Assembly: GCA_003864455.1 (NCBI GenBank)
Contig: BGZN01000003.1
Location: 25,484 to 89,483 of the forward strand
Length of the DNA: 64,000 bases
Direction: 5' to 3'
Origin: Candidatus Termititenax aidoneus
Lineage (GTDB): Bacteria; Margulisbacteria; Termititenacia; Termititenacales; Termititenacaceae
The translations under genes were made by a program, and so were the position numbers. Below, in pieces: positions 26,813 to 64,000 of this stretch (position 1 is its first letter; each line of letters opens with the position of its first letter). The notes beneath the pieces were generated by a model, which did no database searches, had not been told where the DNA came from, and saw only the letters and a list, made by a program, of their open reading frames with translations.

Positions 26813-26838
26813 GAAAAAGGTCAACGGCTAGTATATAA

Positions 26839-37031: not shown

Positions 37032-37289
37032 GACGTGATAATTTAAAAAAACGTGCAACGATTTTGGGTTGCTTACGAGTCGAGCTTAACAAGCGAAGCG
37101 AAGTTAAGCGAGACCCACAAGCACGCGAAGCGGGCGACGTGATAATTTAAAAAAACGTGCAACGATTTTGGGTTGCTTACGAGTCGAGCTTAACAAGCGA
37201 AGCGAAGTTAAGCGAGACCCACAAGCACGCGAAGCGGGCGACGTGATAATTTAAAAAAAACGTGCAACGATTTTGGGTTGCTTACGATA
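37032..37289 (+). repeat. Tandem direct repeat, 104-bp unit x ~2.5 copies (period 104; the third copy has A8 in place of A7 and is truncated), ending 48 bp before the giant gene's start
   Basis: Unit GACGTGATAATTTAAAAAAACGTGCAACGATTTTGGGTTGCTTACGAGTCGAGCTTAACAAGCGAAGCGAAGTTAAGCGAGACCCACAAGCACGCGAAGCGGGC. Copies begin at 37032, 37136 and 37240. Contains stems GCAAC/GTTGC and GCTTAAC/GTTAAGC. Confidence 0.9.
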
Positions 37290-45292: not shown

Positions 45293-48200
45293 ATGATTGT
45301 CTTTAGAAAATTGATCGGACAAAAAGACCGGCTGCTGCCGGGCGGAAGCGGCAAGCCGCCTTTGGCTGCGGTTGGCGCTGCGTACGCCGCCGCTGCTTTG
45401 GTTGTCAGCGGCTGCTCAAGTGAGGCTGAGGATTCCGCCGCGCTTCAAGATGTATTAAAGATTGAAGTTTTTGACAAACTGTCTCTGGAAAAAGCGTGCC
45501 AGATTTCTTTGCAGGGGACTTGGGATACGGTTGTAAACAATGATTCTAAAGTTAACGGCCTATTGGTGAAAATAAATAACGCCGCCGGCCAGCCTGTCTA
45601 TTTCTTTCGGGAAAGCATAAAAATTTTGGCTGAATTTACTGACGCGGATTCCGCTGCCAGAAAAATCGCGCAGGATGTTGTCTCGGAGGGCAGCGCCTAC
45701 TGGCTGCGCAATGCCGCCGGATTGGTTTATGCCGGAGTGTCTGCCGAAGCCAGCCGGGAATTTTTTATCAGAACAAAACGCGGTATAGATATGCTGACCG
45801 AACTGCCGGGCTGCTCCGGTGTTTTTCCGGCTTGGGCGGCGCGGATTGTGTCTGGAGAAATAACTTTAAATCCGGACAAGCCGGGGCCGCAAAATTCCGC
45901 GTCTGACGCTGATCATGACTATGTGATGGCTTTGCTGGCGGCGAGAGCCAACTTGGAAAATAAAATTTGGCATGAGGATACCGAGCTGAATATTCAGTTG
46001 ATTGATGCTTGGCTTGCGGAATTGCTGCCGGCCTTGTACGACGAATACATTGAGCCGGGTAAGGCGAATGGTCTTTATGTGTTGAAGCCTTCGGAAGATT
46101 ATGGCGAGGATATAACCCAGACAAATTATCGGTTGGATTATCTTTCGCCGGAAACCTGCTTTGCGATCGAAAAATATCTGCGTGATACAGATCCCAAGAC
46201 AGCGGATAAATGGCGGACTATCGGGGAAAACAGCATGGAAATATACCTGACTTGTCTGACCCAGCCAGGATTAGGCGTTGTGCCGGCCGAAGCTACATTG
46301 AGCTGGGAGGCTGGAAAATTAAAGATCGACCCCAATGGCACCTGGCAGACTTGGGACGGCATCCGCGCGCCGAGCCGTATTGCCGCCGCTCTCCCGTATC
46401 TGGGCGAGGAATGGCTGAATGCGCATAGGGCTGTTCTGACCGCTTATTTGCAGCGCTGGAATGACGGCTATACGGTAAAAGAATTGGATGCGTCCGCGTA
46501 CTTGTCCCTGGCGGTGCATCTGGGTGAAAATGAAATAGCCAGGACAATCGCGCAGACCTTGGGCGGCGGTTTCAGCGCAAAAGGTGTTTATGCCGAAACG
46601 CATAAATATTTTGAAACATCTTTGATAACTAAAAATTTGCTAGAGCTGTTTTATCCTTATGGATTGAAAGCCAGAATAGAGCCGCAGATAACTCACAATT
46701 CTGCTGAATTGGACAAAGTGAAACAGGGCAGCTTTGTGGTGGATGAGGCGGAAAGGTTTTATCGTAAATTTGGCGACACTGGATATGTTTACAATAATGA
46801 TCCTGTGCCGGTAGATATGGGCAATGGCTATATGATTTCCCTAAAGGAATTTGTGCCGGCAGGTTACGATCTGATCAATAGTGAAAGCTTGGTTTATGGC
46901 CTGATGGATGCGCTGGCTGATTTTGTGCGGAACGATCAGGATATGAAGGCAGCCGATAGGATAAAAAGTTTAATCAATACAATATATTTATTGTGCCAGG
47001 AAAATCATCAAGAAACCAACACGACTTTGCGGCTGCTGCCCTGGGCGGCTATGTCCAATGGCCTGGATTTTCAGATTATTCAGAGGCCAAATGTGCAGAA
47101 TTACGGCAATGCCTCAGCTTCTGATGCCGACCTGCTGCTGATCGCTACTTTAATTAAGATCAAAGAAATAATTAAGGTCAAAGAAAATAGCGCCAGAATC
47201 GGCCTGGATAAAAATATTCTGGATTACTTTATCCATCGATATACGGATAATTTTGTGGAGCGCGTGCTAAAAACTTATAGAGGCGCGGACAAAAAGCTTC
47301 ATTTTATTATGACCGCCGGCGGCTTGGTTACTGTGGATAAAGACCCTTTGACCGGCGAGCCGCTGTACCGAATCAACACTTCATATATCAATTATGGAGC
47401 TATGCAAGTGATCAAACAATATTTTGCCCAGGAGTCCAGAAATGGTATCTGGACGGCAACCGGTTTGGGACAGGGTAGTCTCGCTGATTATTCAAGCTAT
47501 GCCGAGGTTTTTGCCCAATTAGAAAATGACACTAGAGCGTTAATGGCTTTGCTTACTTCAGACGAAAATTTTCCCTTGTCTTTGGGAAAAGATTTTCCTG
47601 AGGTGGTTTATGTGCGCGCTTCAGCGGCGAACGGCTTGGAGGTATTAAAAGAAGACAGCGCTGAAAAGGACGAGAGGTACAAACCGTATCAGCCGCAAAA
47701 GGACAATGTAGCCGGCTGGCGTCTGGCGCTGAATGGGCTGGTCCCGACAGACAGTGTTTGGGGCGAATCTTTTAACTCTGCGTACGACGGCCAAAGATAT
47801 TACCACTACTATCTGAAAAATTTAATAGACAAACTGGATTTTTCCGGCGGCGCGGCGGGAAAACTGGATTTTACAACTACCAGCGCTCGATACAGCTTGA
47901 ATGACACCATATACAATAACGGCTGGCTGGCCGGAATCCAACATCATATTGTCTCCAATATTATTCCGTTGGGACAATTTTCTCTCAGACGCGACGAAAT
48001 GTTTCCAAGTGTGAATTATAAGCCGCCGTTTGCTTACAGAGAAAACGCGGCGCTGCAAAACTGGTATAGCTCGACCTCGCCGGAAAAACTCTATAAATTG
48101 GGGTTGACTGGCTTGAGAGACGGCATGAAATATGCCATTGATCTGAAAAGCGACACCGCGCATATTTATAAAGGCTTTGAAGTTTATCGGACTATGATTT

Positions 48201-49993
48201 TGGCGGGATTAGAGATGCTGCCTGATAATGCTGACGCTGTTTCTTATATTGGCCAGCAGATTTATATGGTGGATAATTATTTAGAGGCTTTGATCAACCG
48301 CGGCTGGGACGACGACCGGATCATCCAGGAGATAAATGTCCTGCTGGCTATCGCCGATCAAAAAGAAGCGAGCTTGCAGCATCCGATAGTAAAAGCGCTG
48401 TGGGGGCACAAGCTCCTGCGTTACGCTTCTTTGCCTCCTTATGAAAGGGAGCTGCTGAAAACGGCGGCTGTGGAATACGGCTGGGCTGAATTGATTGATG
48501 CTAAAACCGGCCAGCCGCCGACAGAAGCTGCTCGGCCTGAGGATATTGTGGTTCAGCCGAAGCCGGACAGTGTTTATGACCGCCTGCAAAATCCGCCCCA
48601 GGATCAGTTTACCTCTACTCGTCTTTGGCTGGATTGGGAAAGCAAGCATCTCGATACGGCGGCAACCAATGGGCGCGGGGAATATGTTTTGACGCTAAAT
48701 GACCTTAAAGATAAAAATAAAAAAGTCTTTTGGGGCATCGGCCTTAATTTGGCTGGAAGCACGCAGCGGCAGAGAGATTTGCTGGCCGAATATGCAGCCA
48801 GAAGGGATGTCTGGAATATAATCCAGGCCAACTCTCCGGCGGAGACCGAGGAACAGATCAAAAAACTGCAAAAAGAGTTGATGGATTATATAAATAAACA
48901 GCCGCAGGAATCCAGAAAAATTTGTTTAAGTCCGCTTATTTTTCCGGCGGATAGGCCTGACCAGCGCGGTGTAAATTTGATCGACAGTTCGATAAATGAA
49001 TATTTTATTCGAGATGTTCTGGAAAATCCAGCCAAGTATGATCTCCATCCAGAGGAAGAAGGAAAACAAGACATTTACGCTGATATATATAAAATGCTCT
49101 GGGAAGCTTATGTGTTAATACAGTACAGAGCGGTAGATGCTCTGCTAAAACAGTTTAGAGAGAATGCCGATTCGATAACTTCTGACAATGCGGCGGCGCT
49201 GAATCATAATTTGGCCAAGCTGCTGTCCGCACTGGATCTGGCCAAACAGACTGGTGTCAGCGGTTTTGAGGCTTTCTTGTTGCCGGACGATAAAGAGTTT
49301 CTAAATCTTTTTGCCTCCAAACAATATAATGTTTTTCTGGATAAGTATTCAGGCCGATTTGTCAGCGCTTTGCGCGGTATTCTCAATAATCTTTACTGGC
49401 CGGCCAGGAATCTGGAGCAGTTGCTGCGTAAAACGCCGTCTGATCTGTCCAGCCCGGCGGCGCAGGCTGAAGCGGAGAGATATGCGGAATTAGCAGGACA
49501 TCAGGAATTGTACCAAAAAATTAAACCGGCTGTGCTTAATCTGATAAACTGGTATAAAGAACTTAACACTAATTGGGCGGAAAATATCGGCCTGCGCGTG
49601 CAGATGCGCGGTATCGAACTGCGCGAAACGTCAGAGCTGGATATTAACGAGGTTGTGGCGGAACTGCATGAACTGCAAAACATGGCGGATATTTACGGCG
49701 AGGATGAGGCCTATGCGCAGTGTAAGCTCATAGAGGCGGAGTTGTGTTTGAAATCTATTTACACAGGGTCTGACGAGTATGGAAATGAGAAAAACGGGTA
49801 TGATTATTATCTAGATATGGTTGAAGATCCTAAGATGTATAAATATTGGTATATTGAAGACTCACTAACAAATATGGGGCCTTTTATAAAAGGGCAATAT
49901 GAGAAAGGCGAAAGAACAGAAACTGGCTCAGATATAGAGCCAAATGGTGTAAGTATTCCTGATCTTCCGCCGCTGTTAGATATCAGCGATTAG
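45293..49993 (+). CDS. Giant lipoprotein B, 1566 aa
   Basis: N-terminal signal with lipobox …AAAALVVSGCSSEAED. It starts 22 bp after gene A. No recognised domain. Confidence 0.8.
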   Translation: MIVFRKLIGQKDRLLPGGSGKPPLAAVGAAYAAAALVVSGCSSEAEDSAALQDVLKIEVFDKLSLEKACQISLQGTWDTVVNNDSKVNGLLVKINNAAGQPVYFFRESIKILAEFTDADSAARKIAQDVVSEGSAYWLRNAAGLVYAGVSAEASREFFIRTKRGIDMLTELPGCSGVFPAWAARIVSGEITLNPDKPGPQNSASDADHDYVMALLAARANLENKIWHEDTELNIQLIDAWLAELLPALYDEYIEPGKANGLYVLKPSEDYGEDITQTNYRLDYLSPETCFAIEKYLRDTDPKTADKWRTIGENSMEIYLTCLTQPGLGVVPAEATLSWEAGKLKIDPNGTWQTWDGIRAPSRIAAALPYLGEEWLNAHRAVLTAYLQRWNDGYTVKELDASAYLSLAVHLGENEIARTIAQTLGGGFSAKGVYAETHKYFETSLITKNLLELFYPYGLKARIEPQITHNSAELDKVKQGSFVVDEAERFYRKFGDTGYVYNNDPVPVDMGNGYMISLKEFVPAGYDLINSESLVYGLMDALADFVRNDQDMKAADRIKSLINTIYLLCQENHQETNTTLRLLPWAAMSNGLDFQIIQRPNVQNYGNASASDADLLLIATLIKIKEIIKVKENSARIGLDKNILDYFIHRYTDNFVERVLKTYRGADKKLHFIMTAGGLVTVDKDPLTGEPLYRINTSYINYGAMQVIKQYFAQESRNGIWTATGLGQGSLADYSSYAEVFAQLENDTRALMALLTSDENFPLSLGKDFPEVVYVRASAANGLEVLKEDSAEKDERYKPYQPQKDNVAGWRLALNGLVPTDSVWGESFNSAYDGQRYYHYYLKNLIDKLDFSGGAAGKLDFTTTSARYSLNDTIYNNGWLAGIQHHIVSNIIPLGQFSLRRDEMFPSVNYKPPFAYRENAALQNWYSSTSPEKLYKLGLTGLRDGMKYAIDLKSDTAHIYKGFEVYRTMILAGLEMLPDNADAVSYIGQQIYMVDNYLEALINRGWDDDRIIQEINVLLAIADQKEASLQHPIVKALWGHKLLRYASLPPYERELLKTAAVEYGWAELIDAKTGQPPTEAARPEDIVVQPKPDSVYDRLQNPPQDQFTSTRLWLDWESKHLDTAATNGRGEYVLTLNDLKDKNKKVFWGIGLNLAGSTQRQRDLLAEYAARRDVWNIIQANSPAETEEQIKKLQKELMDYINKQPQESRKICLSPLIFPADRPDQRGVNLIDSSINEYFIRDVLENPAKYDLHPEEEGKQDIYADIYKMLWEAYVLIQYRAVDALLKQFRENADSITSDNAAALNHNLAKLLSALDLAKQTGVSGFEAFLLPDDKEFLNLFASKQYNVFLDKYSGRFVSALRGILNNLYWPARNLEQLLRKTPSDLSSPAAQAEAERYAELAGHQELYQKIKPAVLNLINWYKELNTNWAENIGLRVQMRGIELRETSELDINEVVAELHELQNMADIYGEDEAYAQCKLIEAELCLKSIYTGSDEYGNEKNGYDYYLDMVEDPKMYKYWYIEDSLTNMGPFIKGQYEKGERTETGSDIEPNGVSIPDLPPLLDISD

Positions 49994-50010
49994 ATTGTTT
50001 GTAAGGAAGT

Positions 50011-53000
50011 GTGATTATGGCAGATGTTGTGCTCAATAATGATGGTTATTTAAGCAGCAGAGAGTACGAGCTTCTTTTACGACGCCAGAAATTGCCGTCT
50101 GCGGATAAAAATGACGCCGGAAATATTAAAGAACTTACGGGCGGATTAAATTATGATGATTTTATTCAAAGTATTTTTGATGAAGCGAAAAATCTTGATT
50201 TAACAAAAAAAAGAGAATCTCTGACGAATTTAAAAGAGATTTGCGGCAATTCTATGGAGAGTAATTCCCGTTATAATGCAGATCAACGAATTTCGCTTTA
50301 CTATGCTTTAATCAGTTGGACTATGCAGAGCGGCGATTATACGCAAGCCAAGAAACTGCTGCACAATCTTAACCCTGATCTCAAAAAGCTTGAAGAATTT
50401 AATAGTGATGTATTTAATACAGAGGCCAACACATACAATCCGCCCCTTACTCTTCTTAAAAATCTAACTATAGGCGTTGATTCTTATTCTGATAAACAAA
50501 TGTGGTTTGTTTCCATGTTAATAGAATTGGCAGAGAAAGGGCAGATTGCCAGCCTAAATGATGATCTGATTAAAATTTTAAATTCTTTGATAAGAGATGC
50601 CACTGGTGATTTAAAGACTTTCTTTCAAAATGCTAAAGAATATTTACGGCTCAAAATTCAAGTTGATTATGTTGCCGCAGACTGGAGAAATTTGTACGCT
50701 AAGACTATCGTAGTTAGAGATAAACAGGACACCTTGGATTTTTTAAACAAATTCTTGCGCGTGAAAGTTTTGACAGAAATTATGACTAATGACCCAGATC
50801 CTAATCGATACTTCACAGAAACAGAAAATATTAACTTGGGTGATTGGAAAAATAGACTTTCAAATGAAGCGCCAAAGGCTATAAGCAATGCCCAGGAACG
50901 TATAAGAATACTTATCGATTATTATTGGGAAACTATAGGGAATCTAAATAGTAATCAGGCGAGAGAAATGAGAGATACTCTGGTAAGAGAACGAGATAAG
51001 AGTTTGGACAATTTGGCTTTGTGGCAGCAGATAAGCGGCGTGTTGACCCAATATTTTATACTTTTGGCTGAAACTTACAAAACGCAAGGGAATTATACAG
51101 CTCTGGCCACTCATCTCGATTGGGCGGAATCCAAAATTTTTCAGCCTCTGGAGAAAGACAAAGACAGAAGAGTTAAATCCCTGCGGGACAAAGAAGGCCA
51201 CTATATGGCTAAATTTATAGATTTTGCCAGAGTAGATGCTGCCTTGCTGCGCGCCAAAGCAGCGCCTACAGACCAAAATATACCCGCTGTCTTAACACAG
51301 GTGCAGACGTTGGAAGGACAATACCAGTCAACGCTTTTGCCGGCGGATAGACAAAGACTGCATTATGCCCGCGCGGATTATTATCAGCTGTGCATCAAGC
51401 AAGCGGAAAAAGCCGGTAATAAAACGCTGGCCAATAGTTATAGAAATGAGCAGTTAGAACGGCTGACCGGTACTGTATTGACTATAAACGAATCGGTTAA
51501 TAACGTCAGCGCTGTTTTAAATACTAGTTATCGAAAAAATACACAGTCCTTGCTTGGCGAGGATAAGAAATTTTTCTTGAATGCCCTTTGCGAAGCGGCG
51601 GAGCTGCATACAGGGCTGAAAAACAAAGCTACAGCTGAAAAATATTATAATGTAATTTTGAGACAGAGCAGTGAGTTGGCTGGTTTGTTAAATTCTTACG
51701 CCAATAAAACAGCGTTTAGTGAATTAGAATCCCGCTTTCTCATCCTTGCTGCGCAATTTATTGTCCCGTCTAAGAACGCAAGGCCTATTTTGGAGAAAAT
51801 TACCGCGGTTTGCCCGCCTAATTCCGACGCCTATATCGGCGCACAAAAAATGCTGGAAGCTTACAAATTCGTTGACCTTTTGGATAGGTTGGAGATATGC
51901 AAAAAAACCGGAGAGTGGCAGAAAGGTCTGGCTGATATTGACGAGGCGTACCAGAAAAAGATTTTTAATGTGCCTGATAATGCGGACGACGACAGAGCAC
52001 GTAAAGAGGAATTAGTTTTCCAAATCGCCGAGTTTCAGGAGCTGCGCGCCGCGGCTGACCGCACTTATTCTCCGGCTGTGTGGATCGGCGATCTGCCGGC
52101 AAAGATAAACGACACGCTGGGGAATACGACGCTGAATGATATTGGCATAGATAACACTCCGCCCAATCAGCAGCGCAGAATGTATCTCGAGTTATCAGCT
52201 TTGAGCCGCCGGAAAGATTACGCCGGTATTTTACGCCTGCTGAATAAATTTTTTGTGAATGATGTTAACTCCAAAATCTCTTTGCGCGGGCTGGATAACA
52301 TAGGAACGCCAAGTGTTAATTATCTGATAGACGGCAACAATAATAAAAATGAAAACGAAACTCCTGAAGAGCAGAATGCCCGCTTCCGCGACAACCTCGC
52401 CTGCGCCTATCTGGAAGCGCTGAATACTTTGCGAACTTCCGAACAGACTGTGCCGGCCAATGTTTTTGCGCCAAGCGATTTGGCCGCGGCGTTCAGCTCT
52501 CGTTTCTCGACAACGCGTTTATTCGGCGTGAATGGACAAGACGGTATTTTGCACAAAAAAGACGAAACTGGCCAGACGGCGGACTGGACAGATACCGAGC
52601 GGCGGATCATGTTTCTCGCCGCGCAGTGTCTTAAAAATTGGCCAAAAGATATTTCCCAAAAAGAAGTTTACGAGGAAATTATCAGGCGTTATCCGCTGCC
52701 GTCGCCGTTGGGCTACACGCCGGTCAATGGAGTTCTGCAGACTTATTATTACAATTCCGACGCCAAGCGCGCCTACTGGGAAGCCCAAGCCGGTCTGGTC
52801 AATTATTACGCTAAACAAAAGAATTTTGACGAGCAAAAAACAGTGTTTGCTAAAATCGAGGCTGAATACAAAAACCGCGTTAATCCGCAAAGCGTTACTA
52901 GTTATGCCGCTGATGCCGCCTATATCAAAAATCTTTATTTCAATGCGCTGTTGATGCAATGCCTGTCCGATCTGGAGCAAGAAAACCGGGCTGCAGCCCT

Positions 53001-56000
53001 GAAAAATCTGCAAACCTGGAAAACGCTGCGAAATGATGTTGATATTTATAAACAATTAACTGACGCCGACCGCGAACGGCATACTTATACTCTGGTGGAA
53101 ATGCTGACCCGTGCGGCTATGCTGTTGGACACGCAGGAAGACCGGCCGCAGGCTGCGCTCGACGAATTGCTGGGGATTTACAGGAACGAAGAATACAATT
53201 TGTCTCGACCACAAACTGCCGCCGCCAAACTCTGCGCCGACATTATCCGCGGCAATGTCGCGGCGCTGGTCGCTGCGAATAAAGAAAAAACTATTGCGCG
53301 TCAGCGTCTGGTCTGGCCTGAAGGACCTGACGGCATTTCTAGAGATTACTTTACGACTGGTTTGGCGGATAATAATTATGAAAAACTAGAGGATAATTAT
53401 AAGGAACTGACGCATAGTTACGAGAAGCGTTTATTTATCTCTTTTCTGCTCAATCAAGCCAAGCTGGGTGATCAACAAGCGTTTAAGCTTTTGCAGGCTT
53501 TGCTGGACAGGGAACAAACCAAAGAAGACGTCGGAGAAGATTTCTTTAAACAGATTGAGCAGCGCTTTGAGTTAGATACGGCGTGGAATTCTCTGGACGC
53601 TGAATACCGCGGCTATCAGCCTGAAAATATCGATGCTGAAAGTATTGCCAAAAAATATCTGGCTTCCTCGTATTCCGCCAACACACGCGACGAAGCGGAA
53701 GATTTGCTCCGCCTGGCTTGGTCAAAAGGCGCTGATCCGCAGAAAGCAATATTGGACGATGGCCAGACCAGAGGTTATGCCGCGCTAATTGTTGAGCCGA
53801 TAGATTTTGCCGACAAACGTGTGCGCGGCGCTTTGGATAATCTGATTTCGTTGTACGCTTACAAGCCTCAAACACGCGATGCCGAACAAAACAAAGGCAA
53901 ACTAGACGCTTTAGTGAAAAGTTTACAGGCCGCTTATGATAGGGCATCTAACGATTTACGCGGCAAAGAATTGTATGTCAAAGCTCTGCTAGCGCAGGCG
54001 GAAACTTATTATCGGCGGAAAAATATGACTGAAAAGGAAAAAGTACTGGAGATAGAAAAAGCGCTGGATATAGTAAAAAGTCTTTTAGCCGAAGAGATTA
54101 GTATTCCCGAAAAAACCGCGCAGTATTATGTTTACTGCGAACAACGCATCCGTCTATCCTTGAGGCAAGCGCAGGACAGCAATAAAACGCCGCTGGAAAT
54201 TGACCGCGCTTTGGAAACTTTGCGTCAGGAGTTCAATTTGATTAGTCCTGACGATTTTCCGACCAATTTGACCGAAAAATTATTAAATTCTTTTATTACA
54301 ATCAACAAACCTGGCCTTACAGATAAAGAGATTGCCGCTGTCCTGACGGATTTGGGCAAGAATTTCGAAGACTGCTTTAAGGATTTTGGCGAAGACCCCA
54401 AAAAAGACATTGAAGCCTGCCGAGAATTTTTTGAGAATATTTGCCAGACCAATTATCAGCGCCGTTTATTTATCAGCATTTTGTGCAGTCTCGCGAATGA
54501 GACATCTGCGGCGCTTGATCCTGATACCGAGAGTGAGCGTGCGGCTCTCATTCAGCATGGCGACAATGATGTCTATGAGCAGGCCGTCGAAGCTCTGCTG
54601 CTGGATAGTGAATATCTGCCTACAGCCCTGGCGCTGGAACTTCTGGGTTCAGAATTTGCGGAGACGATCAAGCCGCGTCTGCGTCTGAACATGGCCTGGC
54701 GTGGACTGACCGGTGAAAATAAGGAATCTGTCGATCATGTGATCTCACCCGATTGGCTGACGGTAGCTGCTGAAGTGGTTGAAGATATTGATATTTTGAC
54801 CGCGGCCAATCCGACGCTAAAAGCCGAATTGCAAGACGAAGTTAATTCTTTGCGTTATTTTGTCCTGATTAAGAGTAAAGATACCGAGAACATCAATACA
54901 GCTTTGCAAGATTATTACCTACCGCGAATTGCAAATGGTATTGCGGACGCGGACGAAAAAACTCTGGTGATTGGCGCTTATGCCTATGATTTGCGTGATT
55001 ACACTGCGGCATTGAGTTATATTGATAAAAATATTCAATATACTGACGAAAGAGACATTCAATCTGACACCGCGCTTGACCCAATACTTTTCTCTATAGT
55101 GGTGGACTGTTGGAGCAAACAAGAGCCAAAGAAGGACATACCCGAAGCCATGGTGCAGCAATACATCAAGGCCATTCAAACCCGGCCAGAACTTTACGCT
55201 AACGACAAAGCCAAGACCGCGCTGGCCAATATCGTCTGCGCTTATGTTGCGCAACAATTGGAAAACGGCAAGGCAGATGCCGCCGGCTGGCTGGACAGCA
55301 TTCTTACTGATTTGGAACACTCCTCGCTGACGCGCTCATATATTGAAAACAGAATAAAAACGCTTCAAGCCAAAGCGCGGATCATACAAAATAAATATAC
55401 AGAAGCGAGCAAACTTTTGCATGAGGTTTTGGAAAAATTTACAAAACCAGCAGAATTGGAAGCCTATAAGGATAAGTTAGAACCGCAGCCTTTTGCTTAT
55501 ATTCACAACGACGCTCTACGGCAACTGGCGCAGGTCAAAGAAGCGCAAGGTGATTATAAAACCGCGCTGGATTTTCTAGATAAATTGCCAGAGACAGAGG
55601 AAAAATATCCCGGCGATGATCCAAAAGAAAAAACCCGGGCCTGGCTTTATGACCGGCTGCAGAGCGCCGGCATCCTAATGAAGCAGGGCAAATATCCGGA
55701 AGCGGAAACCAAATTGCAGACCGTGCGGGAGCAGAATACTCAATTTACAACCGCGGATGACCGCGGCTTGGTTTATTTTAAATTGCTGGATTTGGCGCTG
55801 GCTGAGGCGCGGCAGGCGGAGACTCGGCCAGGATCAGAATTGCGGAGCGCCGCCGAAGGCTGGCTGGCAGACCTGGACGCTCTCGGCCTGCGCCGGCCGG
55901 AAAATATTTTCTTGCGGGAAATCCAGCGCGCGGCCTGCCGCAAACTGCTGTCGTCCGCCGCGCCGGAGACGCTGTACACCGCGGCGAAAAAAGCGCTGGC

Positions 56001-59000
56001 TGCTGTGCCGGCCGGACCGAAACGCGAGGCTTATGCGGATTTGCTGGACGAGCTGCAAGCCTATGCAGATTTAGAGAGCCGGAGTTATTTGCGGCCGGAC
56101 AGCGGCACGAGCATTGCGCCGGCCGAGCTGCCGGAGTATTTTGAACCGGCGGACGGCTTGGCCGCTGAGGAGCATGCGCTGACTCTGCGGACTATTTATC
56201 TCAACAGTCTGCTCACCGCCGGCGACACCGCTGTTTTAACCAAAATAAACGACGATCTAAGCCGGCTCGAGACCGAGCTTGCCAAAACAGACAGCGCCGC
56301 GGACAGTGAAGGCCTGCGGCTGGCTTTGCAAAAATACCGGGCTGAGCTGAATTTATTGAAATACAGTTTTCTAAAAACCCATTTCCAATACGACAAAGAC
56401 GGCAGGGAAATTACCGAGCGTTGGCCTGAGGAAAAAGTGCGCGGCTCTTGGTCAGAGCTGCCGCCGGTTTTTGCCGTTGATTTTGAAAAACGCTTTGCCG
56501 ATTTGCTGCAAACTTCCGGCAGCGACACGCCGCCGTATAATATTTTGGAAGAAAAAACCAGCGAACGGCTGGCTGATTTTGACCAGGCTGAGGACGACGC
56601 TTCTGCAAAACTGGAGTTCTGGGAGTACAAGAAAAAAATTGACGATTTGTTAAATGATCTTGTGGCTTTGGGCGGCAGTTCGCTGGCGGGTGCGCCGGAA
56701 CTGGCGCAGGCGGTCTGCGCCTTGTACGGCTTTGACCCCGCTCTGGCCGAAGCCGAGATTATAGCAAACGGCCAAGAGCCGCGCGGCGGCATTCTGGCCA
56801 TAGTTCGCGCTTTCCGCGCGCAGTTTAAACCGCAGTTTGACGCCGGATTGGATTTCACCGCTGAGGAAAAAGGCTACGGCTATTATTTGCTTTCGCGGCT
56901 TTTGATTAAAGAAGAGAAAGATGTGTCCCGGCTGCTGGAAATCTTGGTGGACGGACATTATTTAGACGGCAAATCCGGCGGCTATTATGCGGAGTCCGGC
57001 GCGCTGCTGATTGATTTTTGGAATAAACAAATCAAGCGCAACAGCGAAAACAAACTGCCGCAGGCAGAATGGAACGCCGTTTTGTGGGATTTGTCTGTAA
57101 GAAAAAAACAGTCCGGCTCAGACTTTCTGCCGGACATTGAGTACACGCCGCGCGGCGGCAATATAGTTTCCAATTACGGCGAAATGAGCTTGACCAAAAA
57201 TTTAGAAAAAAAGATCAAAATTGCGGAAAGAGAGACAGCGCTTGATCTGCCGTCCGGCTTTGCGGAGTGGAAAGAGAAATACAAAGACCGGCTGACTATG
57301 GCTTTGACCGGCAAATACCAATATACCGCCGGCAAAATGCTGCTGGATTATATTGGCGTTTTGATTCGGCGGCGCGCTGAAGAGCAGTTTGTTCCTAAAC
57401 TGGGCGAATTGCAGCAAAAGATCGAGCTGTTGTTTGATTTTGTAGATGATTTTATCAATGCTTTGCCGCCGGACGAGCTGGCCGCCGGCACGTATTATTA
57501 TTATCAGCTCAGAACGGCGGTCCTGAAAACCCAGTATTCCCTGGCGGCTTTGCCTGACGGAGATCAGACAAATGTTTGGAGCGGATATAAAACTGCTTTG
57601 ACTCAAAATTTAAATGAGGTGCGGACTCTTTTGCTGGACAGAAAAGATGTTCTGGATGCTGCCGCGGTTCAGAACGCGGAAAGCGCTTTGCTGCAGTATT
57701 TGTTGACGGTCTGGGACCAGCCGGCCGCTGCCGAAATTGATTCCAGCCAATTGCCGGAAGAAGCTTACTATCTCTATGTGGATTTGTTCTATCGTTTTAT
57801 CGAGGCGCTGTTGATCCAGTATGGGAAATTGAACAAGACCGAAAAAAATCATCTTGATACAGCGATCTCTGTATTTGGAAGCATACTCCAGGAGGAACAC
57901 ACCGGACTGCCTTATCTGAAAAATAATCTTGGCAATGCGGCGAGCCGGCTGACAATCGGGCTGCGTTATTTGTTCGACTGGATCGAGTCCGGTAGTAAAT
58001 CGACCTGGGATACTATTACGACTAACCCAGGGGCTGCCGATGGCGGACAAAAAAACGAAGGTAATACTTCCGATTCCTCAAGCACAATGCAGATACACAC
58101 TTTGGAGCTTCCCCTGTCTTATACGCCGCTTGATTGGCTGACTTTACGCGCCACCGCCGGCGTTAGTTTCTTTAATACTGACTTCAATGAATCGATGACA
58201 CGATTTGAGCGGCGCGAGGGCATGCCGCAGCCATACCCCGACAACGGCGGGCGTCCTCCGCTTAATCTGGAGGAGTTTAAATTCTCTAAATTTGGGCTGG
58301 GCGTGGATTTGGCTACGCCGACCCTGGGCTGGTGGACAGGTTCGTATAGCGCGGATGTGTGGTGGAATCAGACTCCGCAGCTGCGTTCGCCCATTGCCGC
58401 GCAGCGTTACGGCGAGGATGTTTTCTGGAATCAACAGCTGGGGATTAGCGCTTTTGTGGGCAATAAATTTAACCTTGTGCCGAATTCCTTGACCTTCGAT
58501 ATCGATGAGGCGGCTAGCTTTAATCAAACCGCCCGCATCGAAGCTGTTGAGGATTACCGGGGCTACCGAGAAACAAGGGTTTTGGATTCAGTATTCCAAA
58601 ACCGCCTGACCGGACGCTTGAATTTTTCTTTTGGTCAGGGCTGGTCTGCTTACGCTGGCGGCGGCTGGCTGTTTGAGAACGCTCAGGACAGGCGCAGTCT
58701 TTGGGAAGGCAATATTCGTAACGGCTGGCTGGGGGAGCTGGGCTTGTCTTATTACGGCGAGTCGCTGACCTGGGGGCTGGATTTAAATGCCAGCATGCTG
58801 GGACGGGCTTTGAACGCAGGGCTTGGTCTGCGCCTAGAGCCGTTCAGTTGGCGAGGCGTTAGTTTGTTGGCCGGAGTAAGTTATGGTTACTACCCGGAGG
58901 TTACTCTGAGCAGACAAAACACAATTCTGAATAATGGCATGCCGACAGTTACCAAGACGACGGAAACACAGTCTGCACAAAAAAACTGGAAAGGATTTTT

Positions 59001-59040
59001 GGGTTTTAACTGGAATATTGGCGGCGGCAGAAAAAACTAG
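50011..59040 (+). CDS. Giant protein C, 3009 aa: ~2600 aa alpha-solenoid/TPR-like region plus a ~400 aa C-terminal Gly/aromatic-rich beta-barrel-like domain
   Basis: Long Leu/Ala/Glu-rich helical repeat region. The C-terminal segment shows an alternating-aromatic pattern typical of outer-membrane barrels (…LGLRLEPFSWRGVSLLAGVSYGYY…GFLGFNWNIGG). No N-terminal signal peptide is evident. Confidence 0.8.
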   Translation: MIMADVVLNNDGYLSSREYELLLRRQKLPSADKNDAGNIKELTGGLNYDDFIQSIFDEAKNLDLTKKRESLTNLKEICGNSMESNSRYNADQRISLYYALISWTMQSGDYTQAKKLLHNLNPDLKKLEEFNSDVFNTEANTYNPPLTLLKNLTIGVDSYSDKQMWFVSMLIELAEKGQIASLNDDLIKILNSLIRDATGDLKTFFQNAKEYLRLKIQVDYVAADWRNLYAKTIVVRDKQDTLDFLNKFLRVKVLTEIMTNDPDPNRYFTETENINLGDWKNRLSNEAPKAISNAQERIRILIDYYWETIGNLNSNQAREMRDTLVRERDKSLDNLALWQQISGVLTQYFILLAETYKTQGNYTALATHLDWAESKIFQPLEKDKDRRVKSLRDKEGHYMAKFIDFARVDAALLRAKAAPTDQNIPAVLTQVQTLEGQYQSTLLPADRQRLHYARADYYQLCIKQAEKAGNKTLANSYRNEQLERLTGTVLTINESVNNVSAVLNTSYRKNTQSLLGEDKKFFLNALCEAAELHTGLKNKATAEKYYNVILRQSSELAGLLNSYANKTAFSELESRFLILAAQFIVPSKNARPILEKITAVCPPNSDAYIGAQKMLEAYKFVDLLDRLEICKKTGEWQKGLADIDEAYQKKIFNVPDNADDDRARKEELVFQIAEFQELRAAADRTYSPAVWIGDLPAKINDTLGNTTLNDIGIDNTPPNQQRRMYLELSALSRRKDYAGILRLLNKFFVNDVNSKISLRGLDNIGTPSVNYLIDGNNNKNENETPEEQNARFRDNLACAYLEALNTLRTSEQTVPANVFAPSDLAAAFSSRFSTTRLFGVNGQDGILHKKDETGQTADWTDTERRIMFLAAQCLKNWPKDISQKEVYEEIIRRYPLPSPLGYTPVNGVLQTYYYNSDAKRAYWEAQAGLVNYYAKQKNFDEQKTVFAKIEAEYKNRVNPQSVTSYAADAAYIKNLYFNALLMQCLSDLEQENRAAALKNLQTWKTLRNDVDIYKQLTDADRERHTYTLVEMLTRAAMLLDTQEDRPQAALDELLGIYRNEEYNLSRPQTAAAKLCADIIRGNVAALVAANKEKTIARQRLVWPEGPDGISRDYFTTGLADNNYEKLEDNYKELTHSYEKRLFISFLLNQAKLGDQQAFKLLQALLDREQTKEDVGEDFFKQIEQRFELDTAWNSLDAEYRGYQPENIDAESIAKKYLASSYSANTRDEAEDLLRLAWSKGADPQKAILDDGQTRGYAALIVEPIDFADKRVRGALDNLISLYAYKPQTRDAEQNKGKLDALVKSLQAAYDRASNDLRGKELYVKALLAQAETYYRRKNMTEKEKVLEIEKALDIVKSLLAEEISIPEKTAQYYVYCEQRIRLSLRQAQDSNKTPLEIDRALETLRQEFNLISPDDFPTNLTEKLLNSFITINKPGLTDKEIAAVLTDLGKNFEDCFKDFGEDPKKDIEACREFFENICQTNYQRRLFISILCSLANETSAALDPDTESERAALIQHGDNDVYEQAVEALLLDSEYLPTALALELLGSEFAETIKPRLRLNMAWRGLTGENKESVDHVISPDWLTVAAEVVEDIDILTAANPTLKAELQDEVNSLRYFVLIKSKDTENINTALQDYYLPRIANGIADADEKTLVIGAYAYDLRDYTAALSYIDKNIQYTDERDIQSDTALDPILFSIVVDCWSKQEPKKDIPEAMVQQYIKAIQTRPELYANDKAKTALANIVCAYVAQQLENGKADAAGWLDSILTDLEHSSLTRSYIENRIKTLQAKARIIQNKYTEASKLLHEVLEKFTKPAELEAYKDKLEPQPFAYIHNDALRQLAQVKEAQGDYKTALDFLDKLPETEEKYPGDDPKEKTRAWLYDRLQSAGILMKQGKYPEAETKLQTVREQNTQFTTADDRGLVYFKLLDLALAEARQAETRPGSELRSAAEGWLADLDALGLRRPENIFLREIQRAACRKLLSSAAPETLYTAAKKALAAVPAGPKREAYADLLDELQAYADLESRSYLRPDSGTSIAPAELPEYFEPADGLAAEEHALTLRTIYLNSLLTAGDTAVLTKINDDLSRLETELAKTDSAADSEGLRLALQKYRAELNLLKYSFLKTHFQYDKDGREITERWPEEKVRGSWSELPPVFAVDFEKRFADLLQTSGSDTPPYNILEEKTSERLADFDQAEDDASAKLEFWEYKKKIDDLLNDLVALGGSSLAGAPELAQAVCALYGFDPALAEAEIIANGQEPRGGILAIVRAFRAQFKPQFDAGLDFTAEEKGYGYYLLSRLLIKEEKDVSRLLEILVDGHYLDGKSGGYYAESGALLIDFWNKQIKRNSENKLPQAEWNAVLWDLSVRKKQSGSDFLPDIEYTPRGGNIVSNYGEMSLTKNLEKKIKIAERETALDLPSGFAEWKEKYKDRLTMALTGKYQYTAGKMLLDYIGVLIRRRAEEQFVPKLGELQQKIELLFDFVDDFINALPPDELAAGTYYYYQLRTAVLKTQYSLAALPDGDQTNVWSGYKTALTQNLNEVRTLLLDRKDVLDAAAVQNAESALLQYLLTVWDQPAAAEIDSSQLPEEAYYLYVDLFYRFIEALLIQYGKLNKTEKNHLDTAISVFGSILQEEHTGLPYLKNNLGNAASRLTIGLRYLFDWIESGSKSTWDTITTNPGAADGGQKNEGNTSDSSSTMQIHTLELPLSYTPLDWLTLRATAGVSFFNTDFNESMTRFERREGMPQPYPDNGGRPPLNLEEFKFSKFGLGVDLATPTLGWWTGSYSADVWWNQTPQLRSPIAAQRYGEDVFWNQQLGISAFVGNKFNLVPNSLTFDIDEAASFNQTARIEAVEDYRGYRETRVLDSVFQNRLTGRLNFSFGQGWSAYAGGGWLFENAQDRRSLWEGNIRNGWLGELGLSYYGESLTWGLDLNASMLGRALNAGLGLRLEPFSWRGVSLLAGVSYGYYPEVTLSRQNTILNNGMPTVTKTTETQSAQKNWKGFLGFNWNIGGGRKN

Positions 59041-59100: not shown

Positions 59101-61023
59101 ATGTTATTACTTAAACTTATAGCTGATAAAGGCCAACCGCACAATACGCCCGCTGCGCCGGGCGGCAATCCGGATCCGCCCAAAAAATCAAACGTGGTGA
59201 AAGCGGCTGAAGCGGCTGTTTTTGCTGCTTTGGCGGGAACTACAATTAGCTGCACTAATGTTTTGGGGCAGGAAGAAGAGATCTATAATGCGCCGCCTGA
59301 AACCACTGGATATGCCGATCAGGGCTTACCTTACGGCAGTATCGAAATCAAGACGGCCGAAGGCGCTAACAACGCGTTTATTGTAACCGTGCGCAACAGC
59401 CGCAAGCAGGAAGATGAGAATACTCCGGAGAAAGATGTAACCGGCTTAAAAATTCTGCTGAATGAGTTTTATAAAAAATATCCCAATGCGGAAAGCATTA
59501 CTTTTACATTTGAGGATCTGGGCAATTTTGATTTTACCCGGCTGATAGTCAGTCTGCTGGATAAAAACACCAGAGATTATGAATATCTGGGCGATAACAG
59601 CCGTCCGGAGTACGAACAAGTCATGCAGGGCGCGATTTTTGCGGCGCTTTACAAAATGGACTTAAACAGCGGGGGGCTTAATCCGGTCAGCGCTGAGCCT
59701 TATGCCTGGAATAATCCCGCGACTTACGGCATCGCTGTGAATACGGCCGACAAATCCGTAACTTTGGATTTGCGTAAACGCGCCGTGCTTATCCATAATT
59801 TGGAGCATAGAGACCCCCTCACACAGCAGTCCAATGTGGTCATTGCTGATGTGCTGGACAATGCGGGTGAAAGAACTGTCCGGTTTGGGCTGTTGTCCAC
59901 GGAAGGCTTGCCAAAAGACCAGCGCTGGTCGTACCTGGGCTTTAATCTGGAAGACCTGATCGATAAAAACGGCGTGCCAATGAGCGTGAACGGCAAAGTG
60001 TCCTTTAAACTTAGCGGCGCGGCGGGAGCGGCTTTACCGGCGGATTTTGAGTATCGGGTAACGGCCAAAAATACGGACGGCCAAGACCTGGTGTTTTATC
60101 CTGAGGAGCATCTCGGTTTTACCGAACTGCTGTGGAGTGATTTTCATGAAAGTTTTTATCAAACGGCGCATGCAGCCGCAGCGCAGTATCAAAACGACGC
60201 GCTGACGCTGAATTTTGCCAATATAAACTCTTATGTTACAGTCAGCGATGAAACCCCGAAGCTTGATCCTCAGGCGGCTTTGGCTAAAATCAATCTTTTC
60301 GCCAATTATTACAACGCTGCCGGCGGAGAATTGTCTTTGCAGGTCGAGGGCACTGCGGATTTTGATGTGCAAAAATTCCTCAAAGATATTCGGCTGACTC
60401 TCAACTGTGAGGACAGCGGCGGCGGGGCAGTTTATTATTCGCTAGACAAGCAGTTTGCCTATTCCGAGGAGGAATTAAAAAAATTGAGCGGTTTGGCCGT
60501 ATACAATGACGCCGGATACTGGGACATTCGTATCCCGCTGAGTTGCGTAAATACGGAAAAAGGCTTGCCTGCTGGAGAGCTGACTGTTACAGGCGTCTCT
60601 TTTGGCGTGAATAAAGATTCTTTTACTCCTGCTGCGGAAAAAAGCTATGATTATGCTGTCCGCCAAATTGCTATTAAGGCTGAGGCTAATTCGGAGAAAC
60701 ACATTTTTCCGTTCTATAGCGTGGGCAAAACGACGCCTTTAAAATCCATCGGTATTGCCATGCAATGCCAAAACGGAGACACTGTGTCCGGTTTGCAGTT
60801 GAGTGATTTTACTTTGTGTTCAGACGGTGCGGAAAAACCGCTGCCTTATTTGCGCCAGCAGAGCAATTTGCAAAGCGAGGGGCAGGCTGTGAGTTTCGTG
60901 GTGCATACCGGCACACATATTAATGAGGACACGCCGGATGAATATTTTGTGCCGTATCCGGAGGACAAATTGCCGATTAAATATAAAATAACAGCCAGCG
61001 GTGATATTATTAATGTATATTAG
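59101..61023 (+). CDS. Paralog D, 640 aa, Pro/Lys-rich N-terminus then a hydrophobic segment ending in Cys (AAVFAALAGTTISC)
   Basis: RBS agagggaat. Architecture and N-terminal organisation parallel gene E. No recognised domain. Confidence 0.75.
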   Translation: MLLLKLIADKGQPHNTPAAPGGNPDPPKKSNVVKAAEAAVFAALAGTTISCTNVLGQEEEIYNAPPETTGYADQGLPYGSIEIKTAEGANNAFIVTVRNSRKQEDENTPEKDVTGLKILLNEFYKKYPNAESITFTFEDLGNFDFTRLIVSLLDKNTRDYEYLGDNSRPEYEQVMQGAIFAALYKMDLNSGGLNPVSAEPYAWNNPATYGIAVNTADKSVTLDLRKRAVLIHNLEHRDPLTQQSNVVIADVLDNAGERTVRFGLLSTEGLPKDQRWSYLGFNLEDLIDKNGVPMSVNGKVSFKLSGAAGAALPADFEYRVTAKNTDGQDLVFYPEEHLGFTELLWSDFHESFYQTAHAAAAQYQNDALTLNFANINSYVTVSDETPKLDPQAALAKINLFANYYNAAGGELSLQVEGTADFDVQKFLKDIRLTLNCEDSGGGAVYYSLDKQFAYSEEELKKLSGLAVYNDAGYWDIRIPLSCVNTEKGLPAGELTVTGVSFGVNKDSFTPAAEKSYDYAVRQIAIKAEANSEKHIFPFYSVGKTTPLKSIGIAMQCQNGDTVSGLQLSDFTLCSDGAEKPLPYLRQQSNLQSEGQAVSFVVHTGTHINEDTPDEYFVPYPEDKLPIKYKITASGDIINVY

Positions 61024-61040: not shown

Positions 61041-63011
61041 ATGCTGTTAAAAAATATAAATTTTGAAGATAAACCGAAAACCGGCGGCGGTGTTCCGCCC
61101 AAAGATCCGGCATTGCCTGCTGTGGCTAAAGCGGCTATCGGAGCGGCTGGCGGAGCGATTATGAATAGCTGCGGTAATCCTTTTGATCCCATTGTGGTAG
61201 ACCTTGGCTCGACGACGACCGAAATACCCTCGGATAAACCGGAGGAGAATACGCTGGAATGGTGGAAAGATCAGTATCCGGGTTACCATGTGGATTATAC
61301 GACGGGCGAGCCGCTTTTCCCCCAAATGTCCGGACCGTCTATACCGCCCGACGTGAAAAGCCATGTTGTGGTTTGGGGCAATGCAGGCAACATAATTTTT
61401 GATGATTACACGACAGAAATCTTGATTAGAGACAGCCGTTATCACCCGACGGACAAAAATCAATTGGCGGCGATGAAAGTTAATTTAGCTTATTTTTATG
61501 AACAATATCAAAAAACGCATGGCGTAACGCCGACCGAGATTACCTTTACGATTACGGACATCAAAGGACAAACGCCGCTGCAGGAGTTTCGGTTTTACCT
61601 TTTGGATTCTGTCAGCAGCAAGGAAGCGGAATTAGCCCAGACCGACGAGTACAAGAATGATCCGGAGGGATTAAAAGCCCTGATGCAGGCGCACACCATT
61701 TCCGTTAAGCTGGGCGACACCGCTGAATTGGCGAGGGCTGGTTTTACTTTCAACGAGGCGGAGGGAAGCATTACGATAGATTTAACAAAACGCAGTCTGT
61801 ACCCGGATACTGTCATGCTGGACGAAGGCGAGGGTGATGATCCGGCAGACGCGTCTTACATTGACGGTTATTCTATTGGCAGCGCGGGAGAAATTACTTT
61901 TAAACTGAGAGCCAGACCGGACGGCAAAAAAAGCTGGGGTTTTGTAGGCGTTTATACAGCCGCCGGATTCGATTTGACTGCGGATTCTGTGTTCAGCTAT
62001 ACATTGGGAGATTTTCAGCCGCCGATTTATCCGAATTACTCTGTGCAGGACAAAGGTTATCGCGTTGTTTTCAGCTATGGCAGTGAAAAAAACGGCAATT
62101 ACAGAGAATTAATTTACGACCCCAATGAGTTTTCGGACAGCAGCCCGTCTGCCGTGAATGTGCCGGCTGAGCGCGCGCATGAAAAATATTTAGCTTTGCG
62201 CGACGCCGAGGCTTTGGCTTTGGGCAATAATAATCTGAGACTGAAATTTTACGGCAAAGACTCGCGCGTTACGATCAATGATACTGTGGAGAGGCCGGAG
62301 GATAAGTTTAAGTTTGATGTGGATCATGATGATATGAGTGATTCTACACGAATAAGTTATCTGAAATTTAAGGTGCGTAAAACAACAGGGTTGAGCGGCA
62401 AGGCGGATTTTTTCAGCAAAGTCAGAGTTGGCTTGAAACTCGAAGATGTTGCTGACGCAAACCAAGATGCGAGTTGTCCAGTTGCCTTGAATGGAGGACG
62501 TATGAACTATATTCTAGAAGAGGATTTGGATGTTAATTATTATGAAATATCCGTTCCGCTTTTGTTTGTGGAGGGCATTGGATTTGACAGGCAAAATGTT
62601 TTGAGTGGAGTTTATTTTGAAAGCCTTGAGGCCTTGGAGGGTTTGGAAATCAAGGATATACAGATCACGGCCGTCGAGCAAGGAGACAGGTCATTGCCTT
62701 TGGTTCAAGTTGACAGGACGGGATTTAGCGGTTTTGGCGCGGCGCTGGATAATAAAGACGCGCAAGAAGCCGTGATCTTGCGGGATTTGAAAATCGGCGG
62801 CAGAGAAATTCTGCAAAAGATCGATCTGGACAGCAGAGTTGAGGAGATTTCTATACTGGCTCTCACCGGCACGTATGAAAATGATGATATGTTTAACGGC
62901 GAATTTACCTCTACAGGCCAGGTGATATATACCCTGAAAGCTTCAGAGCCTATTGTCAATAGCAAAGCAATTTTTGGCATTCCGGAAGATGAGGAACAAA
63001 CGGATCAATAA
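61041..63011 (+). CDS. Paralog E, 656 aa (N-terminus …PKDPALPAVAKAAIGAAGGAIMNSC)
   Basis: RBS aaaggagag. Shares N-terminal architecture and scattered motifs with D (…TF.D…F.LLD…; …DL.KR…). Confidence 0.75.
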   Translation: MLLKNINFEDKPKTGGGVPPKDPALPAVAKAAIGAAGGAIMNSCGNPFDPIVVDLGSTTTEIPSDKPEENTLEWWKDQYPGYHVDYTTGEPLFPQMSGPSIPPDVKSHVVVWGNAGNIIFDDYTTEILIRDSRYHPTDKNQLAAMKVNLAYFYEQYQKTHGVTPTEITFTITDIKGQTPLQEFRFYLLDSVSSKEAELAQTDEYKNDPEGLKALMQAHTISVKLGDTAELARAGFTFNEAEGSITIDLTKRSLYPDTVMLDEGEGDDPADASYIDGYSIGSAGEITFKLRARPDGKKSWGFVGVYTAAGFDLTADSVFSYTLGDFQPPIYPNYSVQDKGYRVVFSYGSEKNGNYRELIYDPNEFSDSSPSAVNVPAERAHEKYLALRDAEALALGNNNLRLKFYGKDSRVTINDTVERPEDKFKFDVDHDDMSDSTRISYLKFKVRKTTGLSGKADFFSKVRVGLKLEDVADANQDASCPVALNGGRMNYILEEDLDVNYYEISVPLLFVEGIGFDRQNVLSGVYFESLEALEGLEIKDIQITAVEQGDRSLPLVQVDRTGFSGFGAALDNKDAQEAVILRDLKIGGREILQKIDLDSRVEEISILALTGTYENDDMFNGEFTSTGQVIYTLKASEPIVNSKAIFGIPEDEEQTDQ

Positions 63012-63070: not shown

Positions 63071-64000
63071 ATGCGAAAACTATATAAAATTTTAATGATT
63101 GTTATGGTTTTCTTTCTATCTGTTCCTGCCTTTGCTATGCAAGTGAAGATTTCGACCACGGGAGCAAGTCTGACTTATCCTGTTACCTTGTGGTTGGAAG
63201 ATACAAGCGCTTTAGAGATTAAAACTTATTCTTTGGCTAATGCTAGTGGCACTAGCATAAATGAGGGTAATTATCGCTTCAAGTTGTACTCTAGTAATGT
63301 TGTTGCCGCTTATTCTGGGGGAAAACATACTTACAAAACGGCTTCTATAGTTAATGTTCCATTTACTACAATTACAGTTGCCTTTGATATTCCCAGCCAC
63401 ACCCTCACCGGCTACGTCAAAAATGCCAGCGGCGGCGCTATATCCGGCGCGACAGTCCATATTTTCGAGGCGGATTCTGCCGATGATCCCGCGCATTACT
63501 GGCTGGCCTCGACAACGACTGATGGGAGCGGCAAGTATGAATTTAAGGGCGTGTACAGCGATGTGAACTATCACATCAAGGCCGAGAAGAGCGGTTACTT
63601 TCCAATGTTTGCCTCCAAAACAACAGACGGCGGCGAATATAGTCCGGTCAATATCAAGGGCGGCGAAACTGTTAAATATATAACGCTGCGCGCCGCGCAA
63701 ACAATTCAAGGTACGATTACCAATGGCGATGCCAGCACGGAAGTTTCCGCGTTTTTGGCGGATTCGAGCTTATTAAATAATGACCAGTATGTTTGGGTTA
63801 GTAAATTTGAGGGAAGCAATCCCAGTCCTTATACTTTAGATGTTCCTGCCGGCGTGCCGGTAATAATTCAGGCCAAGCGCGGTAATTATATCACGGCCTT
63901 TTATAAAGCGGGCAGCAGTCAATGGTATGATGGTAAAACAGCGTCCTCGGTGCAAGGCGGAGCTGCTGGCGTGAATATTACTCTGGAGCAGGCCGGCAGT
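63071..64000 (+). CDS. Secreted protein with a CarboxypepD_reg-like (transthyretin-like beta-sandwich) domain, 3'-truncated by the window edge
   Basis: Signal peptide MRKLYKILMIVMVFFLSVPAFA. Motif TGYVKNASGGAISGATVHIFEADSA…TTTDGSGKYEFKGV is typical of CarboxypepD_reg domains. The ORF is open to the window end. Confidence 0.7.
   Translation, partial: MRKLYKILMIVMVFFLSVPAFAMQVKISTTGASLTYPVTLWLEDTSALEIKTYSLANASGTSINEGNYRFKLYSSNVVAAYSGGKHTYKTASIVNVPFTTITVAFDIPSHTLTGYVKNASGGAISGATVHIFEADSADDPAHYWLASTTTDGSGKYEFKGVYSDVNYHIKAEKSGYFPMFASKTTDGGEYSPVNIKGGETVKYITLRAAQTIQGTITNGDASTEVSAFLADSSLLNNDQYVWVSKFEGSNPSPYTLDVPAGVPVIIQAKRGNYITAFYKAGSSQWYDGKTASSVQGGAAGVNITLEQAGS

Follow-up and report, generated by a model that had tools for sequence, protein, structure and literature searches.

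A giant protein of Candidatus Termititenax aidoneus with a predicted outer-membrane-type beta-barrel and no recognisable signal peptide

In the proteins BcsC (PDB 6tzk), PgaA (4y25) and PelB (9h80) a long helical N-terminal part and a C-terminal outer-membrane (OM) barrel are joined in one polypeptide; the barrels of these proteins have 16 strands. To our knowledge there is no bacterial OM barrel protein without a Sec signal, all of them crossing the inner membrane via Sec. Here we describe a gene whose product appears to follow the same design and in which no such signal was recognised. The gene, NO1_0361 (D in the following), is located in a 64,000-nt stretch of DNA from Candidatus Termititenax aidoneus, a termite-gut ectosymbiont (phylum Margulisiibacteriota), which as a whole is referred to as the window. 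D stands third in a row of five or six co-directional genes (B to G), which are separated by gaps of 17-60 nt. All evidence is computational and derives from three sequences of uncultured organisms. D would be either an exception to the Sec rule for OM barrels, or a membrane-barrel fold serving another compartment.

Start and N-terminus of D

An earlier, sequence-only reading of the window had described D as a 3009-aa protein. The GTG-initiated open reading frame at 50011..59040 (plus strand) does consist of 3,009 codons, but the length of the protein has to be corrected to 3,007 amino acids (aa), because ATG 50017 is the likely start (50017..59040, stop codon included). The ribosome-binding site (RBS) AAGGAAG (50003-50009) is separated from ATG 50017 by 7 nt and from GTG 50011 by only 1 nt, and the database entry to which translated D is 100% identical over its full length (GBR72904.1, NO1_0361 of Ca. 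Termititenax aidoneus) is also 3,007 aa long. In the frame of D a TAA codon (50002-50004), which overlaps the RBS, stands five codons 5' of the ATG; D therefore has no 5' extension and no upstream signal peptide. Downstream of the start the frame is intact over 9 kb. Fusion of D to the preceding gene C by readthrough or frameshifting was ruled out, the two genes being in different frames with two stops between them.

Relatives of D are few. An exhaustive HMMER search with aa 2680-3007 against 1.84 billion representatives matched only three proteins: D itself, the 3,433-aa protein P0003 from a Margulisbacteria metagenome-assembled genome (MAG) and P0002, a 1,031-aa C-terminal fragment. In a clustering of about 15 billion proteins each of the three is a singleton, and a homolog search with full-length D returned only D. 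Nothing was found in a first genome contig scan and in a metagenome contig scan, whereas a second genome contig scan yielded only L003, which is the same contig as L001, the locus of P0003 (MAG Gx481_bin108). When another index was queried with the barrel alignment or the GH8-like region of gene C (see below), the result was empty, without even the query itself; the index appears to lack these proteins, and absence there is no evidence. As far as these searches can tell, the D family is extremely narrow and lineage-specific.

The first 90 residues of D are hydrophilic, with a maximum 12-residue Kyte-Doolittle mean of 0.33, and no Sec, lipoprotein or Tat signal was found in the protein. Nor did any 19-residue window across the whole of D reach 1.6, so that there is no internal transmembrane anchor. 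The stretch LLLRRQKLP was considered as a Tat signal and rejected, as it is without a hydrophobic (h) region and is not conserved. P0003 begins at the homologous position (MTDVV, compared with MADVV in D), has an RBS of its own (GGAGGAAAG) and, six codons upstream, a TAA in the same frame, and likewise shows no hydrophobic stretch at the N-terminus. The N-terminal 90 aa of the two proteins align at 37-44% identity. Because P0003 shares both the layout of the start and the N-terminal alignment, the missing signal is a conserved property rather than an annotation error. Elsewhere in the window canonical signals do occur: gene G begins with MRKLYKILMIVMVFFLSVPAFAMQ, and an open reading frame at 11526 carries MKKIILAIFTVMLALSIFGC. 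The organism thus uses ordinary Sec and lipoprotein signals, and D is without one.

These observations bear out the view of the sequence-only reading that the N-terminus carries no signal peptide, and D almost certainly lacks one in reality and not just in annotation. That reading had also allowed for a mis-called start with a signal peptide hidden upstream, and had suggested a check of alternative in-frame starts and of the ortholog; the check gave no missed signal peptide in D and none encoded upstream of P0003. A mis-called start or a decaying gene, with a signal peptide that lies or once lay upstream, has nothing in its favour as an explanation except the prior expectation that outer-membrane proteins (OMPs) need Sec signals. 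It would have to accommodate two orthologs (48% identity) with in-frame stops five and six codons upstream, with good RBSs and conserved first residues (MxDVV) and with a frame intact over 9 kb, and a gene C which occupies another frame upstream and has its own conserved C-terminus. We regard it as hardly credible. What remains is that D is exported by a non-classical route, or not exported at all.

The C-terminal beta domain and the helical region

Over the last ~300 aa of D the composition shifts sharply (G 11%, W 4.7%, F 6.3%, K 2%). The period-2 hydrophobic moment of this part is above that of shuffles (z = 2.4) and its beta moment exceeds its alpha moment; in the first 2,680 aa the alpha moment is the larger one. 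AlphaFold2 (AF2), run on an alignment of the three sequences, modelled the domain as an up-and-down meander of 15 long antiparallel strands, with a mean predicted local distance difference test score (pLDDT) of 68, a predicted template modelling score (pTM) of 0.54, and pLDDT values of 77-90 in the strand blocks. Two strands quoted in the sequence-only reading, GLGLRLEPFSW (aa 2935-2945, counted from ATG 50017) and VSLLAGVSYGYY (aa 2948-2959), are present and coincide with AF2 strands 11 and 12. The same reading had likened the last ~400 aa to a barrel. Its barrel-like character is upheld by model and composition, but the extent is closer to 360 aa (aa 2646-3007). A soluble beta-sandwich, which had been named as an alternative, is disfavoured by the meander of long strands.

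Structural comparison of the model gave porins (OccAB1, score 13.4), BcsC (12.7), PelB (12.4), PgaA (12.3), BamA, FhaC, OmpG and Sam50 as matches, and Foldseek returned FadL and the barrels of TonB-dependent transporters, with E ~1e-4. There was no significant match in a viral structure library, the weak ones being OMP-like. A PDB sequence search with aa 2680-3007 at E <= 10 found no match. We consider it quite likely that the C-terminal domain of D has an OM-type barrel fold.

Most of the AF2 strands are amphipathic, with one face 62-100% hydrophobic and the other mostly polar. In strands 13 and 14 (aa 2962-2985) both faces are hydrophilic. Shortly before the modelled segment begins there is a conserved segment of alternating residues, SRLTIGLRYLFDWI (aa 2646-2659), which looks like one more putative strand. 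In the favoured reading the barrel domain (aa 2646-2999; 57952..59013, plus strand) would consist of 14 membrane strands, namely aa 2646-2659, AF2 strands 1-12 and AF2 strand 15, with both termini periplasmic; a hydrophilic hairpin at the surface would be made up of strands 13 and 14. Read back from the periplasmic C-terminus, this predicted topology has periplasmic turns of 2-6 aa and external loops of 29, 31, 12, 5, 7, 2 and 28 aa. Loops L1 and L2 contain 36 of the 49 gap columns of the alignment, and the most conserved segment is the helix-bearing loop L3 (PQxRSPxxAxRxGE). The C-terminus of P0002, ...FFGVEMKLPF-COOH, is a textbook OMP ending, and that of P0003 reads ...PLSPF followed by the 6-aa tail DKHNKK.

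The remainder of the protein (aa 1-2645; 50017..57951, plus strand) is hydrophilic and rich in Leu, Ala and Glu, and from composition and moments is presumed to be a helical solenoid. It has no Pfam, NCBIfam or PDB sequence match. The best PDB profile match for the helical part was a designed PPR protein (E 0.65), and comparison of D with itself showed one weak internal repeat (aa 1108-1196 and 1468-1567; hhalign E 1.2e-4, probability 55%). Along the sequence the conservation of D against L001 is mosaic. D and P0003 are 48% identical overall, but 60-80% over aa ~890-1780 (window 52685-55360) and 22-50% elsewhere (22-47% in the N-terminal 890 aa). Codon identity at conserved residues is raised to 0.69-0.86 over aa ~890-1070 of D, and some 430 residues that D does not have are found in P0003 after about aa 1245. 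This pattern in the alignment suggests recombination, module exchange or very uneven constraint.

The operon and its surroundings

The order of genes in the operon is conserved. L001 has the same order (2849/1593/3433/626/622/2294 aa), and locus L002 retains D-E-F-G. Gene B (37337..45271, plus strand; 2,644 aa), of which an ortholog is present in L001, has no signal peptide and, given its hydrophobic helices (aa ~271-292 and ~2209-2613), is presumably a giant polytopic inner-membrane protein; it has no match in Pfam, NCBIfam, PHROGs, PADLOC or PDB. Genes C (45293..49993, plus strand; 1,566 aa; lipobox VVSGC, Cys at about aa 41), E (59101..61023, plus strand; 640 aa; lipobox TISC) and F (61041..63011, plus strand; 656 aa; lipobox MNSC) are lipoprotein-like, and E and F are paralogs (22% identity over 595 aa, E 1e-6). 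Gene G (63071..64000, plus strand) is truncated at the end of the window. Its product combines a classical, cleavable signal peptide with beta-sandwich repeats of the CarboxypepD_reg type, and its ortholog is 2,294 aa long. Nothing significant was found for B, C, D, E and F in Pfam, NCBIfam, PHROGs and PADLOC, the sole exception being an ortholog of C, C1.

C1 matches Pfam Glyco_hydro_8 (PF01270) with 27 bits (cut-off 24; E 2.8e-6), and BLASTP of C1 against a manually entered Escherichia coli BcsZ sequence gave E 0.001 over 298 aa. The motifs VSEGSAY, FPAW, NSASDADHD and WDGIR are common to C and C1, and aa ~120-460 of C may tentatively be assigned to a GH8-like (alpha/alpha)6 glycanase region. 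The assignment is tentative because the window's own C has no Pfam and no PDB match, and because a profile of C and C1 compared with the manually entered BcsZ scored no better than shuffles. About 400 aa past the first, C has a second 'NASASDAD'-like motif (window 47105-47135; aa ~605-614), which is partly conserved in the ortholog and hints, at the level of sequence, that another GH8-like (alpha/alpha)6 domain, a degenerate one, follows in tandem.

The explanation we favour is that D is a lineage-specific giant envelope protein consisting of a presumed alpha-helical solenoid of ~2,640 aa and a ~360-aa OM-type beta-barrel of 14-16 strands, and would be the outer-membrane component of the operon B-C-D-E-F-G. 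Of the other products, B would be a polytopic membrane protein of giant size, C, E and F would be lipoproteins (C tentatively GH8-like), and G a Sec-secreted fibre built from Ig-like repeats. Together the products may build an envelope-spanning surface apparatus used either for attachment to a partner spirochete or for the handling of surface glycans. As in BcsC, PgaA and PelB, the helical scaffold of D would be joined to an OM barrel that serves as anchor or pore; the inner membrane would be crossed in a non-classical way, perhaps through or with B. For this operon-level model as a whole we see an even chance. The organism reportedly lives attached to spirochetes, and because attachment to another bacterium is its defining trait, these five or six large proteins, for which practically no relatives can be detected, are a candidate attachment machinery of an 'ectosymbiont of an ectosymbiont'.

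Several results weigh against the favoured explanation. The missing signal means that D may also be no conventional OMP. The structure model depends on three sequences and is of moderate confidence; AF2 on the single sequence of the domain reached a pLDDT of 29, and the number of strands assigned by DSSP on the three-sequence model, 15, is odd. Pfam at E <= 10 gave no OMP family, nor any family at all, for aa 2680-3007. The C-terminus of D, ...GFNWNIGGGRKN (...NWNIGGGRKN), is a short tail without a terminal aromatic residue. In the presumed solenoid the only TPR-like signal (aa 1791-1862; 55387..55602, plus strand) is below threshold, with 20.7 bits for TPR_14 (cut-off 23.5) and 15.4 bits for TPR_19 (cut-off 25). 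In the operon, the GH8 link comes from one 27-bit ortholog match that was reproduced neither for C nor for the two-sequence profile, and no glycosyltransferase, ABC transporter, membrane fusion protein (MFP) or TolC-like domain was detected in B-G with Pfam and NCBIfam.

Some of these points would equally suit a D that stays inside the cell as a cytoplasmic or inner-membrane-associated scaffold, for example of a tip or attachment cytoskeleton together with B, the C-terminus being a soluble or oligomeric beta domain over-interpreted by AF2. Such a protein needs no export signal, B, a membrane protein whose soluble regions are very large, is likewise without one, the confidence of the AF2 model is only moderate, and the odd strand count and the hydrophilic strands 13 and 14 would be less surprising. 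On the other hand, at least 13 long strands show hydrophobic faces in alternation, Gly and aromatic residues are enriched, P0002 ends in a C-terminal Phe, and the hydrophobic exterior of such a barrel would be insoluble. Taking both sides into account, we think a scaffold of this kind rather unlikely.

An OM beta-barrel that bypasses Sec would reach its membrane either through a new translocon encoded in the operon, for which B is the candidate, or from outside, by delivery into the OM of the partner spirochete, where it would be an inter-bacterial anchor. We rate this as unlikely; if true, it would be a new route of beta-barrel protein biogenesis in bacteria. In the second variant D would be released by lysis or dedicated secretion, and its barrel would act as an adhesin or pore-former that inserts into or docks onto the OM of the partner Treponema. 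The absence of a Sec signal from both orthologs, the reported attached lifestyle on spirochetes, the variability of the putative surface loops, which are the most variable parts of D, and the confinement of the family to this lineage are consistent with such delivery. Against it stand the lack of likeness to known pore-forming toxins, all structural matches being barrels of the type that BAM (beta-barrel assembly machinery) puts together, the classical C-terminal Phe beta-signal of P0002, which points to the cell's own BAM, and the fact that the neighbourhood yielded no genes for holins, endolysins or secretion. Delivery to the partner membrane is considered improbable, and the favoured explanation keeps D in the OM of its own cell.

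In the course of the analysis some further features of the operon were observed. C, E, F and all their orthologs (L001, L002) share a conserved N-terminal extension of 20-35 aa before the h-region and the lipobox Cys (window 45293-45420, 59101-59260 and 61041-61180). Its consensus is M-x-x-(K/N)-L-(I/K)-x-(D/F)-(E/K)-(D/Q), followed by a Gly/Pro-rich 'GGG(S/N)xPP', as in MFNKLINDEQNYLTGSGGGNP and MNKWLTKILSDEELLRRVRMGGGSKPP, and the ATG starts have strong RBSs. The layout recalls the bipartite extended signal peptide region (ESPR) or double-glycine leaders but fits neither. The start of B is similar (MYQYLLKVISDIAGPP) but without an h-region, and D is without the extension. B also contains the sequence QMFRW (window 44300-44314; aa 2322-2326), a match to the QxxRW motif found in processive GT2 synthases; the ortholog has the same Q, R and W and the same FGA after them. 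Since no GT-A domain precedes it and Pfam detects no glycosyltransferase, this occurrence is probably due to chance, for which about 0.07 matches per protein of the size of B are expected. In the 365-bp gap between gene A and gene B there is a 104-bp tandem repeat (window 37030-37287; 2.5 copies, 99% identity), each copy with a stem-loop and a T-run on the minus strand. Rfam gave no match and no riboswitch in the sequence upstream of the operon, this repeat included; it could be a regulatory or copy-number-variable element.

At some distance from the operon, a low-GC island (window ~15930-27500; 34-38% GC, compared with about 46-54% in the flanks) begins at a tRNA gene (15930-16001) and is an integrated mobile element. 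Its genes are those of a large serine recombinase, ParB_N, two ArdC-like antirestriction proteins, of which one has a zincin peptidase, a Rep-like protein of the rolling-circle type and a helix-turn-helix regulator. Between this island and housekeeping genes lies the gene of a 1,015-aa protein (28206-31253, minus strand) in which TPR/MalT-like repeats come after an AAA_16 ATPase domain, a pair of domains typical of STAND-type regulators.

Comparison with known systems

Large proteins without a signal peptide are known among the surface proteins of Gram-negatives that are secreted by type I systems (LapA, SiiE, RTX adhesins), and D resembles these in being giant and acidic. Unlike them, it has no GGxGxD (RTX) motifs and no Ig-like repeats, its C-terminus is a predicted barrel and not a type I secretion signal, and the operon is without ABC, MFP and TolC genes. 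With the 14-stranded barrels of FadL and OmpG and with those of TonB-dependent transporters the modelled domain has in common that its strands are long, its periplasmic turns short, and its loop L3 conserved and equipped with a helix. It differs from them in sequence (5-12% identity), in having no plug domain and in being fused to 2,640 aa of presumed helical sequence without a signal peptide.

The combination of a large N-terminal region and a C-terminal barrel is also that of type Va autotransporters, and D could be a type V-like adhesin that displays a helical passenger through its barrel. An adhesin at the surface is plausible for D and would suit the attached lifestyle; a conserved helical segment (GLPYLxxNxxNAxSRL) immediately precedes the first putative strand, and the BrkA beta-domain is in the Foldseek list at rank 22 (E 1.4e-3). 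However, the structural likeness to BrkA is weak (template modelling score 0.28), D has neither a Sec signal nor an ESPR, there is no match to the Pfam autotransporter beta-domain (PF03797), the strands number more than 12 (15 in the model), and the would-be passenger is alpha-rich and not a beta-helix. An autotransporter-like D is, in our judgement, quite unlikely.

The comparison with BcsC, PgaA and PelB, in which D is taken as a helical scaffold with an OM barrel, extends to the neighbouring gene, as C, by way of the match of C1, would encode the tentative counterpart of the GH8 (BcsZ-family) enzyme of BcsC-type systems. The differences lie in the absence of a signal peptide, in a helical part that is about three times longer and not recognisably TPR, in the lack of any sequence match to the barrel families of these proteins (e.g. 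Pfam BCSC_C), and in an operon where B, C, E, F and G include no synthase or glycosyltransferase. Moreover, these three proteins are not the best structural matches of D, and the strand count is probably 14 as against 16. Because there is no signal, no membership in a barrel family, no synthase and a different number of strands, D was filed under neither the TPR-porins nor the autotransporters. By analogy of architecture, the design it most closely resembles appears to be that of the TPR-plus-porin family (BcsC, PgaA, PelB), and after these that of the autotransporters.

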